From Escherichia coli (lineage in GTDB: Bacteria > Pseudomonadota > Gammaproteobacteria > Enterobacterales > Enterobacteriaceae): 64,000 bases of DNA. The stretch lies in assembly GCF_013315695.1 (NCBI RefSeq), contig NZ_CP054354.1; one strand, 5' to 3'. The translations under genes and the position numbers were made by a program. This document shows positions 56,692 through 60,816 of the stretch, one piece after another. Position 1 is the stretch's first letter, and the number at the start of each line of letters is the position of its first letter. A model generated the notes under the pieces. It had not been told where the DNA came from. It did no database searches and saw only the letters and a program-made list of their open reading frames with translations.

Positions 56692-59600
56692 TCATCGGCC
56701 GGGGCTGTGGGATTGTGCCTGTTGCAGAGTTTTTTCCTGCCTGTCCTCCGCCTTTTGGCTGTCAGACCACTCTTTCCAGGTCTGCTCAAAACCCAGAGAG
56801 CGGAAAAGCTTGTCCGGTTGCTCTTCCGGTTTGTGGATGGCGGCAAACAACGGGGAGTCCTGTTGCTTCAGGTGAAACTGCATTATTTGTGGGGACGGAC
56901 GCTGATGATTATTCTCATCATGGTTAACAGCTTCACCGTAACCGGCAAACTGCAGACCGTTATCCGTCAGGGCATTGATAACCAGCTGACGGTTGTCAGC
57001 TGACGGGGTGGCCAGTGCCGGGTAAAGGGTGCCGTTCAGGCGGACCACGCCCTGCAGATGATCATCTGCGCTGTGGACCAGCAGAAGATTCAACTGACGA
57101 TTGTCCTTATCGGCAGAGGCGATGGCTGGTATCAGTTCATTGGGGGCATTACCAGCGAGGGGGAGTCGCATTGATTGATCCTGAGGTGCTGATGCAGGTT
57201 GCCTGTCTTCACCAATGTACAGATTATTGGGAGGATTTTTGGGGGAGCGAACTTCCTGCATTATCTGTGGCCAGTGTTGTTGCATCTGTAACATCACCTG
57301 GCTGAATGTTGCCATCGGAAACTCCAGGGTATGCTGACCCGCATGAGGTTGGTCATTATTAACGGTAATGCCGTTACTGACCGGGGTTATGGCCCAGATA
57401 TTACGGATACGATCCCGCGTTTCACCGGACAGCCGGAATGTTTCTCTCGCCTGCAGTGTCAGTGTGACGGGGTCACCCTTCTGATGGTTTTTGACCAGTT
57501 CTTCCAGGCCGTTTCCCCAGTATTCCCGTTTGCCACTGCGGTTGGTGAGCTCCACAAAAAAGCAGCGCCCTTTTCCGGGCGCATACTCTTTTTCTCCGTA
57601 GTTTGTCAGGACGGCAGTCACACTTTCACCGGGGCTGAGCTTGCCGGGCGGCTCTTCCACCGGTGTGTCGGGTTGCTGCGGCTGTGCACTGACAGGGGCT
57701 TTTTCTGGCGCAGACGACGGGGCGGCGGGGTGTTCCGGTCTGTCGGCCCGGGGGGCTTCAGCTTTTGCCGTGACCGGCGCTTCCGGATGCGGTGTTTCAG
57801 CCGTACTGCCTGCTGTTTGTTCAGCCTCTGCCTTCGGTGACACAGGGGGAGCCGGTTGGGCCATTGTTGTCTCTTCCGGTGACTGGCGGTTGAGTTCCGG
57901 CGTGGGTCTGTGGGTGACAATGGCATCATGCGCCATCTCTTTTTCCTTGCGGAGTTTTTCCAGTGCTGCCCGCTGGGCCGGGAGTTTCATGCGAACCTTG
58001 ATGTCGTATTCGACAATCAGCTGCATGGCTTTTTGCTTAAAGGCATCACTGCCGGTCAGCTCGATAACGCCGCCATAGAAGTTGGTGGCCACAGCAAGGG
58101 CAGCCAGGACCTTTTTGTCATCCGCGCTGGCGCCATCCACCATTTCGAGACAGTAGAGTCTGTCCAGGAAGGCGGGTTCACCGTCAACGCTGTAGAGCGC
58201 AGTCCTGTCGGGAAACTCTTTGTGTGTAAGATTTTTAAGGATCTCGTCCAGGTTGTGCCGCTGCGGACTGTCGGGACGGCGGGGTGCAAAGATAATCGTG
58301 TCCGGTTCCGCTGACGATGTGTCTTCCGGGCTGGTTTCCGGTGGTGATGGTGGTGCGACCTCCTCTGTTGCTGTTTCAGCCTCCGTGGGCTTTTTCTCCT
58401 GAATAACGGAAGGTTCTGAGGTGCGTGATTTCACACCGGTCAGAAAACGGCGCAGACGGCTGAAAAGCGATGGCGTTTCAGGGCGGGCTGCTTCATTCGC
58501 TGTGCTGGTCTCAGTGGCGGACACAAGACGCTCTTCCTGCAGTTTATCTTCAGCCGTCGGTTCAGCGGTGGCCTGCCGGACTGGCTGAGTTTCTGCAGGT
58601 TCAGAAGGTGAGGCTGTTTCTGCTGTGCCGGTGTTGTGAACAGCAACCGTGGCATCGGCATTGAGCTCCTCAGCGGGTGCGTTCCTGTTGTCATCGGTGA
58701 TGTCAGAGGAGTGCTCTGCGCCGGTCTCAGCGGCAGACGCAACGCTCTTTTCCTGTGCTTTATCTTCTGCCGTCAGTTCAGTGGTCACCTGCTGAACTGG
58801 CCGCATCCCGGCCGGTTCAGAAACTGTGTTTGTCTCCGCGTTGTCGGTGTTGTGAACAGTGGGGGCCCCCGGAGTGTCAGCGTTGAGATCTTCCGCAAAT
58901 GCGCTCCAGTCGTCAGCGCTGGCCATGGAAACCTGCACTTGTTCTTCAGACTGCGTTGTGGTGGTGTGCTGTGTCCCGGCCGCGTCGGAGAGGGCGGTTT
59001 CCGGTGTGTCTTCACTCCGGGGATGTTCTTCTGCCTGCGTGCTCTGGTTGTCAGCGGTGGTGGCAGAGGCATTTTCTTCACCGGTATCAGCGGTAGCCAC
59101 AGAGGCATTTTCTTCTCTGGTATCGGCAGCGGAAACAACGTTCTCGTGTGGTTTATCTTCTGCGGTCGGTTCAGTGGTTGCCTGCTGCACGGACTGCATC
59201 CCGGCAGGTTCAGGAAGCGCTCCTGTTTCTGCTGTGTCGCTGTTGTGAGCGGTGTCTGTACCTGTGGCGTCTGTATTGAGGTCTTCCTGGTCGCCAGCGG
59301 TAGGCACAGAGGTATTCTCTGTGCCGGTATCAGCGGCAGACGCAATATTCTCCAGTGGTTTATCCGGGGATAACGTCTCCGCAGTTACTGATTGCAGGGA
59401 TGCATAGGCGGCATAGTCATCTTCATATGCCTGGTTTTCTGTATCGTCGGAGTGGGTGTCATAAGGCGTATCCTGTGTCGCCAGCTCCGTTTCCGGGGCT
59501 GTGCTCTGTCTGTTTTCAGGGGACATTTGTGGCTTCTCATCTTTTACCGGTGTGAATATCAGGTTGTCGATCACGACAGCCTCACGATGGTCGGCAGTGT

Positions 59601-60753
59601 CACTGTTGGGTGTGGGGATACCGATATGTTTTAACTGTGCATTCATGGCATTCTGAAAGTTGTCCCGTCCCCGGCTGGCGTCCAGGTCATTGAAATCGGT
59701 CAGTCCCTGTGCTTTTTCCGCCTCCGTAAAGGCCGGAATAATGACTTCGCCATTCGTGACTTCTGCGGCCTTTGTTGCACTAAAAACCCCTTTGTTAATT
59801 TCCCGTTGATGATCGTTGTCGGCACAGAAGACAAAGGGGCTGTCAGTCCAGATTTGGCGGGCATTTTCTGCCACGGCAATCATATTGCTGGCATCAACTG
59901 TCATCAGAACCGGAAGGCCGGTTGCTTCGTGCAGGGAGGCGGCAGTAGCGTAACCTTCCGCAAATAACAGGGGGCGGCCATTTTCCGGGGTTCCGAAGGT
60001 GAACCAGTTGCCGGTTTTCTCGGAGTCTTTCAGAATGCGGGCATCCTTCCCGCCGGTGACCGGAATACGCTGGTACGAACGTATTTCTCCCCGGCCGTTG
60101 CTGAAGGGAATAACCAGCTCATTTTTATTGTTCAGCCGCACGCCAGGCGCGGCCCGGATGCCCTTGCGCGTCAGGTATTCATGTGCTGTTGCCTGTGGCA
60201 ACCTGTTAATATAGGAGCGGGCATAGCCGGCCTGTTTGTTATACTGTTGCTGCAGTTTACGAGCGTTATCATCGCGCTGTTGCTGAGCGAATGCCCGCAG
60301 ATGCAGTCTGGCCAGAGGATCGTGTTGTTCTCCGCCGGAAAATACCCAGTTTGTGGGACTGTCATCGGCGCTCCGGTAGTCGCGGTACCAGCCGGCGGGA
60401 CGACCATCAAGATAGGCCCTGTATGCGCCACTTTTGGCCCCTTTTTTGTCATCCCGGGTGGCCACTCTGTGTATGGCTCCGTCCATCTGTGGCAATCCCT
60501 GAATAACCAGCCCGGCGTTTTCCAGGACCTGAGCAAATTCAGTGACCGGATCGCCGGCATCCATCGACAGTTCCTGTGGCCGGGGTAACCAGCGCTCCAG
60601 CAGTGAAAGTTCGGTACCCGCCCGGGCATACCAGAGCTTTTTTTCTGGATCCCATGCGACAGCTTTGCGGCCATTTAACGGGGGAACTGCATTTTTTACG
60701 GCTTCTGTCTCCTCAGGCGGGACAGCAAGCCAGGTTCGATATCTGGACTTCAT
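56692..60753 (-). CDS. sog: Sog-type conjugative DNA primase with repeat-rich linker
   Basis: 1353 aa; TOPRIM-like motifs (FAEGYATAASL, CADNDH) in the N-terminal third; central region of imperfect ~80-aa Thr/Ala/Glu-rich repeats; GGAG RBS. Confidence 0.85.
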   Translation of the reverse strand: MKSRYRTWLAVPPEETEAVKNAVPPLNGRKAVAWDPEKKLWYARAGTELSLLERWLPRPQELSMDAGDPVTEFAQVLENAGLVIQGLPQMDGAIHRVATRDDKKGAKSGAYRAYLDGRPAGWYRDYRSADDSPTNWVFSGGEQHDPLARLHLRAFAQQQRDDNARKLQQQYNKQAGYARSYINRLPQATAHEYLTRKGIRAAPGVRLNNKNELVIPFSNGRGEIRSYQRIPVTGGKDARILKDSEKTGNWFTFGTPENGRPLLFAEGYATAASLHEATGLPVLMTVDASNMIAVAENARQIWTDSPFVFCADNDHQREINKGVFSATKAAEVTNGEVIIPAFTEAEKAQGLTDFNDLDASRGRDNFQNAMNAQLKHIGIPTPNSDTADHREAVVIDNLIFTPVKDEKPQMSPENRQSTAPETELATQDTPYDTHSDDTENQAYEDDYAAYASLQSVTAETLSPDKPLENIASAADTGTENTSVPTAGDQEDLNTDATGTDTAHNSDTAETGALPEPAGMQSVQQATTEPTAEDKPHENVVSAADTREENASVATADTGEENASATTADNQSTQAEEHPRSEDTPETALSDAAGTQHTTTTQSEEQVQVSMASADDWSAFAEDLNADTPGAPTVHNTDNAETNTVSEPAGMRPVQQVTTELTAEDKAQEKSVASAAETGAEHSSDITDDNRNAPAEELNADATVAVHNTGTAETASPSEPAETQPVRQATAEPTAEDKLQEERLVSATETSTANEAARPETPSLFSRLRRFLTGVKSRTSEPSVIQEKKPTEAETATEEVAPPSPPETSPEDTSSAEPDTIIFAPRRPDSPQRHNLDEILKNLTHKEFPDRTALYSVDGEPAFLDRLYCLEMVDGASADDKKVLAALAVATNFYGGVIELTGSDAFKQKAMQLIVEYDIKVRMKLPAQRAALEKLRKEKEMAHDAIVTHRPTPELNRQSPEETTMAQPAPPVSPKAEAEQTAGSTAETPHPEAPVTAKAEAPRADRPEHPAAPSSAPEKAPVSAQPQQPDTPVEEPPGKLSPGESVTAVLTNYGEKEYAPGKGRCFFVELTNRSGKREYWGNGLEELVKNHQKGDPVTLTLQARETFRLSGETRDRIRNIWAITPVSNGITVNNDQPHAGQHTLEFPMATFSQVMLQMQQHWPQIMQEVRSPKNPPNNLYIGEDRQPASAPQDQSMRLPLAGNAPNELIPAIASADKDNRQLNLLLVHSADDHLQGVVRLNGTLYPALATPSADNRQLVINALTDNGLQFAGYGEAVNHDENNHQRPSPQIMQFHLKQQDSPLFAAIHKPEEQPDKLFRSLGFEQTWKEWSDSQKAEDRQEKTLQQAQSHSPGR

Positions 60754-60816
60754 GTCGTTCTCCGGGGATTAAAGATGAGGGCGTTGTGATACGCCGGGAT
60801 GATGAACAAAAGAGGG

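Follow-up and report, generated by a model that had tools for sequence, protein, structure and literature searches.

What the long middle of a conjugation primase is made of, and how it came to be so repetitive, is the question raised by sog, a gene of an IncB/O-type plasmid of the I-complex that lies at 56692-60753 on the minus strand of the stretch of Escherichia coli DNA presented above (64,000 nucleotides (nt) in full; hereafter the window) and that, in its open reading frame (ORF) list, encodes the plasmid DNA primase SogL of 1353 amino acids (aa). Sog is no newcomer: sog is a long-known conjugation gene, and hundreds of plasmid records already contain this very sequence. Transposon sequencing established that sogLS is needed for conjugation of a plasmid with an IncB/O backbone (PMC10286972) and of the IncI1 plasmid pESBL (PMC4288162), and the primase activity of Sog and its transfer to the recipient are known from ColIb-P9 and R64 (PMC6112013). 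The repeats within the gene are undescribed in the literature that we searched, including papers on I-complex and IncK2 plasmids. Our analyses led us to a reading that we regard as probable, namely that the repeat region is an old, acidic and disordered spacer, built from repeats and varying in length as these recombine.

A first-pass annotation, made from the letters alone, had described at least three imperfect repeats of about 80 aa within a Thr/Ala/Glu-rich linker in the center of Sog. Repeats are present there, at a significance well supported against composition-matched shuffles, and the three peptides that were quoted are among them; the spacing of about 80 aa did not hold, since the repeat heads at aa 516 (PAGMQSV...), aa 647 (PAGMRPV...) and aa 719 (PAETQPV...) are separated by 131 aa and then by 72 aa, and an additional degenerate unit (U0) had gone unlisted. 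The Thr/Ala/Glu-rich repeat stretch, at 58459-59397, is made up of four units of about 63-72 aa, three full and one partial, with an insert bringing one of them to 131 aa, and is laid out within its linker as follows:

58306-59556, minus strand: linker 1 (aa 400-816), acidic, Thr/Ala/Glu-rich and predicted to be disordered
59209-59397, minus strand: unit U0 (aa 453-515), degenerate, with 54% aa identity to U1 and 48% to U2 (z of about 9)
58816-59208, minus strand: unit U1 (aa 516-646), a 71-aa unit with a 60-aa insert, comprising a head (59074-59208), the insert (58894-59073) and a tail (58816-58893)
59056-59127, minus strand: a 36-nt tandem duplication, ADTREENASVAT / ADTGEENASATT, with a spacing of 36 nt and 29 of 36 nt identical
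58600-58815, minus strand: unit U2 (aa 647-718), a complete 72-aa unit
58459-58599, minus strand: unit U3 (aa 719-765), the head of a unit only

The units have diverged considerably, with pairwise identities of 35-57% in protein and 56-72% in DNA, and yet Smith-Waterman scores of unit pairs, measured against composition-preserving shuffles, had z values of 9-10.7 in five of the six pairs and of 4.8 in the remaining one (U0/U3), while the best pair of segments within linker 1 reached z = 24 against shuffles. Internal repetition in the linker therefore exceeds what its composition would lead one to expect. A self dot-plot of the whole gene, the check that the first-pass annotation had proposed, made the repeats visible: 460 of its 476 off-diagonal matches fell within the linker, at offsets of 216, 393, 609 and 36 nt, compared with zero to six matches in codon-shuffled controls. 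A repeat search returned a 164-nt family of three copies at 62-72% identity. Tandem Repeats Finder reported no repeats in the region, as the units are too diverged for it (below about 70% identity), interrupted and not strictly tandem, and self-BLASTP of the whole protein gave no off-diagonal alignments.

Evidence that these units are still active in shaping the gene came from its relatives. Among the 120 closest cluster representatives, the length of Sog runs from 1222 to 1463 aa, and 118 sequences (117 representatives and the window protein) could be scored by anchor motifs. Nearly all of the length variation resides in linker 1, which spans 286-527 aa and has one to four repeat heads per sequence, whereas the N-terminal part is 399 aa in 118 of 118, only three sequences depart from 321 aa in the C-terminal part, and only one departs from 86 aa in linker 2, a second linker described below. 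Seven deletion alleles were mapped, with losses of 69, 72, 72, 74, 81, 85 and 131 aa in proteins otherwise 97-99.9% identical to that of the window, and in all seven the junctions are in register, in that the ends of the deletion lie at homologous positions of two units (e.g., TAEDK/TAEDK). One allele (P0044) is missing exactly the 131-aa interval of U1, and two (P0006 and P0036) have lost exactly the 72 aa of U2. At the other extreme, expanded alleles of 1405, 1458 and 1463 aa have one extra long unit, the longest of them being encoded by the complete plasmid p29D_scFOS (NZ_OQ534117.1); these three forms and the 1284-aa form were each found in several contigs, records or database members. The polymorphism in length and copy number, with junctions in register, indicates that repeat-mediated gain and loss is a real process within the B/O/K/Z group. 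The window allele itself is common (its 90% cluster has 4716 members), and it has one 12-aa tandem copy more than the common alleles of 1341 and 1343 aa that were examined, which are missing one of the 36-nt copies. A practical corollary is that the length of Sog (1222-1463 aa) is not a reliable marker of lineage, since the repeats recombine.

That the repeats form a spacer rather than a folded domain is a matter of prediction, from AlphaFold2 and from a charge-hydropathy analysis, which were in agreement. Thr and Ala each make up 15% of linker 1, and Glu 13%; its net charge is -64 and its hydropathy low, and it falls on the disordered side of the charge-hydropathy plot. Two AlphaFold2 runs, one of aa 400-954 and one of the whole of the part corresponding to SogS (the shorter product of sog), both gave predicted local distance difference test (pLDDT) scores under 50, with almost no secondary structure, between aa 400 and about aa 831. 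Toward its C-terminus the acidic linker has a single basic amphipathic element, LFSRLRRFLT (aa 761-770, 58443-58472), for which the SogS model predicts a helix, with boundaries that are approximate (model residues 354-363 converted to Sog numbering), and the IncI1 Sog has a counterpart that resembles it, SSFLDKARGLFTR.

The age of the repeats could be gauged from the divergence between units, whose synonymous divergence (dS) is 0.6-1.3 and whose ratio of non-synonymous to synonymous divergence (dN/dS) is 0.26-0.52, values which, together with the sharing of the repeats with IncK2/Z alleles, argue for units that are old and weakly constrained. By these estimates the duplications are old, and the window allele shows just one recent event, the 36-nt tandem copy at 59056-59127. 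A comparison of the window with IncK2/Z alleles gave a dN/dS of 0.44 for linker 1 and of 0.14 for the primase domain, and the constraint on the linker, as estimated from these ratios, is relaxed but not absent. Relative to two IncK2/Z-type sequences (L003 and L004), dS along sog is uneven, at 0.01-0.05 in the C-terminal part, 0.23 in the primase domain and 0.39 in the linker, and allele P0003 changes from B/O-type to K/Z-type sequence inside the repeats; the unevenness and the switch together suggest that there are mosaic sog alleles formed by recombination.

From these observations a history of the region can be proposed. In the IncB/O/K/Z lineage a unit of about 70 aa would have been duplicated long ago, one unit would later have received the 60-aa insert, and the 12-aa tandem copy would be a more recent addition. 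Recombination or slippage between units, made possible by the short identical stretches that they still share, would then give rise to in-frame alleles with fewer or more units. What the analysis shows are the repeats and how old they are, the disorder as predicted, and the variation in length with deletion junctions in register. The resulting spacer would tether the primase domain at the N-terminus to LPD7 and to the beta-rich part at the C-terminus of Sog, and would be the N-terminal tail of SogS. Selection would act mainly to retain a long, acidic and unfolded tether along with one or two short acidic aromatic motifs, and not an exact sequence or length, so that changes in repeat length would be tolerated by the protein in vivo.

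Several points weigh against so simple an account. The transposon insertions that demonstrated the need for sogLS truncate Sog, and hence say nothing on the linker. A number of the rare length variants are each known from one short-read assembly and may be artefacts, and the window allele is stable, with 342 plasmid records that match it at 95% identity or more and with collinearity over the full 1231 nt in every such record among the matches listed. In addition, the between-unit dN/dS below 1 and the near-invariance of two aromatic motifs amount to more constraint than a pure spacer needs. These motifs, both of them acidic, are:

59395-59427, minus strand: YEDDYAAYASL (aa 443-453), present once in 116 of 118 close homologues
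58885-58917, minus strand: ADDWSAFAEDL (aa 613-623), within the insert of U1

An alternative is that the modules are a functional array, in which the acidic aromatic pairs, or else the conserved EPTAEDK heads, would be short linear motifs displayed to a partner such as the type IVB coupling complex, host replication proteins or the host SSB, with copy number tuning valency. In its favor, and beyond the between-unit dN/dS, both motifs hardly vary among the close homologues, and the expanded 1458- and 1463-aa alleles have two copies of the DDW motif. The IncI1 Sog has counterparts of both, DKDWREFEAEL and EEYEDYSAYQEL (the latter matching YEDDYAAYASL), in the opposite order, and similar motifs occur in many distant linkers. 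Across 25 Sog-family linkers that are otherwise unalignable there are 35 [WFY]xx[WFY] pairs in an acidic context, a four-fold excess over the 8.8 +/- 2.8 in shuffles, and 17 of the 25 have at least one pair where 6.3 would be expected, although the shuffle test overstates the independence of sequences related by descent. In the first AlphaFold2 run, DDWSAFAEDL was also the one segment of the linker predicted to be helical. Set against this, the helix was not reproduced in the second model, eight of the 25 linkers have no aromatic pair, allele P0044 (known from one contig only) is without the DDW motif, and the partners named are candidates only. We regard an array of this type as an unlikely alternative to the spacer. 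In the same vein, it is doubtful, though worth bearing in mind, that the motifs ([DE]-rich, aromatic-x-x-aromatic, Leu/Met) would be a genuine docking site for the DNA-binding part of Sog itself or for a host or type IV secretion partner, with gain and loss of modules (zero, one or two DDW motifs) tuning the recruitment or release of Sog in conjugation. More cautiously put, the aromatic pairs may be short linear motifs, and as candidates read from sequence they are a mildly new lead.

Two further explanations fared less well. Sog has been proposed to coat the transferred strand (PMC6112013), and the acidic linker could be envisaged as a mimic of single-stranded DNA (ssDNA) that folds back on the DNA-binding C-terminal part of the protein and regulates its binding. 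The net charge of -64, the acidic aromatic motifs, the published proposal of strand coating and the Foldseek matches of the C-terminal beta-rich region, which are mostly to OB-fold ssDNA binders (RPA70, POT1 and SSB), are all compatible with such a role; AlphaFold2, however, docked no segment of the linker onto the folded domains, and the acidic region is internal and not a C-terminal tail, which leaves this idea improbable in our estimation. Least credible of all, to the point that we give it next to no weight, is that the repeats serve a second, overlapping antisense gene or a signal at the DNA level. The region does have long ORFs in several frames on both strands, as the first-pass annotation had pointed out:

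58636-59373, plus strand: a spurious antisense ORF of 245 aa
58859-59248, plus strand: an off-frame ORF
58785-59345, minus strand: an off-frame ORF
58440-58742, minus strand: an off-frame ORF

The attribution of these ORFs to the DNA repeats was not borne out, as codon-shuffled linkers free of repeats have similarly long open frames: the longest off-frame run is 253 codons, compared with 178 +/- 46 in the shuffles, 7% of which reach the observed value, and the non-repetitive parts of sog have open off-frame runs of 206 and 182 codons. The source of the ORFs is instead the T-poor coding strand (14% T). Nor is the antisense run conserved, since it is 253 codons long in the window, 169-183 among K2/Z relatives and 69 in that frame of IncI1, and an overlapping antisense gene was rejected on these two grounds. 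When the units are compared with one another, divergence is greater at synonymous than at non-synonymous sites, a sign that selection acts on the Sog frame. A promoter or terminator signal inside the repeats was likewise rejected, as no promoter-like site was found in the repeat region and terminator-like sites were at background level. Gene callers and readers would do well to ignore the off-frame ORFs in 58440-59373.

Judged by its EGYATA motif, its position between traK/icmT and traL and its collinearity with an annotated SogL, the gene at 56692-60753 is sog, as the first-pass annotation had also maintained. Its DNA is 100% identical to a coding sequence of the E. coli plasmid pMB9108_2 (NZ_CP103535.1), which is typed as IncI1/B/O with the transfer system MPF_I, and in whose annotation the gene is flanked by icmT/traK and a traL-like gene, its expected place in an MPF_I tra operon. 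The gene order around sog matches that of IncI1 records with the exception of nuc. The window protein is collinear at both ends with the annotated SogL of the IncI1-type plasmid pN11, at 74% aa identity over aa 1-399, which includes the EGYATA primase domain, and at 69% in LPD7 and 64% in the C-terminal part, i.e., in the portion that corresponds to SogS. The remaining features of the protein are:

59557-60753, minus strand: N-terminal primase domain (aa 1-399), 74% aa identity to IncI1 Sog
aa 6-57, minus strand: DUF5710 (Pfam), inside the primase domain
59941-59958, minus strand: EGYATA motif (aa 266-271), located in the sequence
59524-59526, minus strand: in-frame ATG (M410), the inferred start of SogS, aligning with M412 of IncI1 Sog
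57928-58260, minus strand: folded LPD7 domain (aa 832-942), with Pfam PF18821 at aa 852-935 and AlphaFold2 pLDDT of about 90-95
57649-57888, minus strand: linker 2 (aa 956-1035), Pro/Ala/Glu-rich and predicted to be disordered
56707-57651, minus strand: C-terminal beta-rich folded region (aa 1035-1349), AlphaFold2 pLDDT 84-94

Database domains cover little of this architecture. Pfam found only DUF5710 and LPD7 in Sog, Pfam and NCBIfam reported no primase or Toprim domain, and searches of Pfam, NCBIfam and Protein Data Bank (PDB) sequences gave no match for the linker; a precomputed Pfam assignment, PF13362, is attached to some close homologues. Public annotation calls the Sog primase just an "LPD7 domain-containing protein" or a "DUF5710 domain-containing protein", and its identity is easily missed. 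The gap between sog and traK/icmT is only 63 nt (60754-60816), and nuc, the gene for an EDTA-resistant nuclease that sits between traK and sogL in IncI1 plasmids, is not in the window plasmid. Linker 2, between LPD7 and the C-terminal beta-rich region, is 22% Pro and 20% Ala, and in allele P0043 it is shorter by 19 aa. In the C-terminal domain, which is otherwise conserved, a 12-aa patch, TFRLSGETRDRI (aa 1105-1116, 57406-57441), is swapped for an unrelated RSPSSPGKPEWV or RLPSSPGKPEWV in many K/Z-type alleles; a compensated frameshift was considered for this patch and rejected, as the DNA alignment is without a clean +1/-1 pair.

The internal start of SogS, which the first-pass annotation had recommended locating, could be placed with the aid of the published sizes of the two products, 1255 and 844 aa for SogL and SogS of R64 (PMC6112013) and 1254 and an annotated 843 aa for those of pESBL (PMC4288162), from which the IncI1 SogS start is M412. 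The homologous codon in the window is M410; each of the five sog genes compared has either ATG or GTG at this position, and in the window a purine-rich GAGAAG lies 6 nt upstream of the ATG. SogS beginning at M410 is predicted to be 944 aa. As this start coincides with the border between the primase domain and linker 1, the repeat region would be the N-terminal tail of SogS.

How general is such a spacer? The C-terminal half of Sog was used to search 1.84 billion representative proteins, and the mapping of domains in the matches yielded 23 Sog-like representatives in which the linker between primase and LPD7 ranges from 144 to 768 aa and is always net acidic (-12 to -65). Their linkers are generally rich in Ala, Pro and Glu, and in many cases in Thr or Ser. 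Significant internal repeats were found in several lineages, with periods and sequences that differ from one another and are unrelated to the unit in the window, and none were found in others, including IncI1. On the strength of this comparison, repeat growth in the Sog spacer is recurrent and lineage-specific. The importance of all this should not be overstated: for biology at large it matters little, the gene being known and its disordered linker, built from repeats, being ordinary, and what is new is modest, namely the polymorphism in length and the conservation of the aromatic motifs.

Acidic unfolded segments have well-known precedents. The acidic, aromatic-tipped tails of E. coli SSB, T7 gp2.5 and T4 gp32 regulate DNA binding, and the Sog linker may be said to work like them insofar as it is an acidic and predicted unfolded segment with aromatics on a protein reported to act on ssDNA. 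The likeness goes no further than that, as the Sog segment is internal, and hence no acidic C-terminal tail of the SSB type, and is ten times longer; moreover, no docking is predicted for it and the OB folds of Sog are not established. The E-block signal of Legionella Dot/Icm substrates is Glu-rich and lies within about the last 30 residues, and a signal of this type was likewise set aside for Sog, whose acidic region is internal (aa 410-816 of 1353); that the coupling complex would recognize acidic stretches is a speculative idea.

Among the relatives of Sog, the Pri primase of the IncM plasmid pCTX-M3 is reported to be a SogL homologue with a potential second, shorter in-frame product (1070 and 689 aa; PMC6112013). 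In a 1065-aa representative that we equate with Pri by inference, the primase domain ends near aa 385 and is followed by an acidic linker of 181 aa, far shorter than that of the window and without significant repeats (z = 2.6). Closer at hand is the IncI1 SogL/SogS of R64 and ColIb-P9, for which our comparators were pN11, pSTM709 and the published R64 sizes, and which has the same position in tra, the same domains at the identities noted above, its SogS start at the codon homologous to M410 and an acidic disordered linker in the same place. It differs in having its two aromatic motifs in the opposite order, nuc upstream of sog and a linker of 340 aa with no sign of repeats (z = 0.4, versus 417 aa and z = 24 in the window) that is only 27% identical to that of the window. 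The first-pass annotation had put the window protein at about 100 aa longer than R64 Sog, probably through repeat expansion. The difference is indeed 98-99 aa (1353 versus 1255 aa in R64 (PMC6112013) and 1254 aa in pN11), and expansion is part of the explanation at most: the 99-aa excess is made up of 77 aa in linker 1, 24 aa in linker 2 (86 versus 62 aa) and a loss of 2 aa at the N-terminus, and an expansion unit by unit relative to R64 is untraceable, given that the IncI1 linker is so dissimilar and without repeats.

Closest of all are the Sog proteins of IncK2/Z and other IncB/O plasmids (e.g., pRHB29-C09_2 and p29D_scFOS), which at 79-99% identity share the repeat family and the architecture of the window protein, and which differ from it in having anywhere from one to four repeat heads and a linker 1 of 286-527 aa. 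Together with the aromatic motifs, this natural series of linker lengths is ready-made material for probing what the acidic part of Sog does in transfer.

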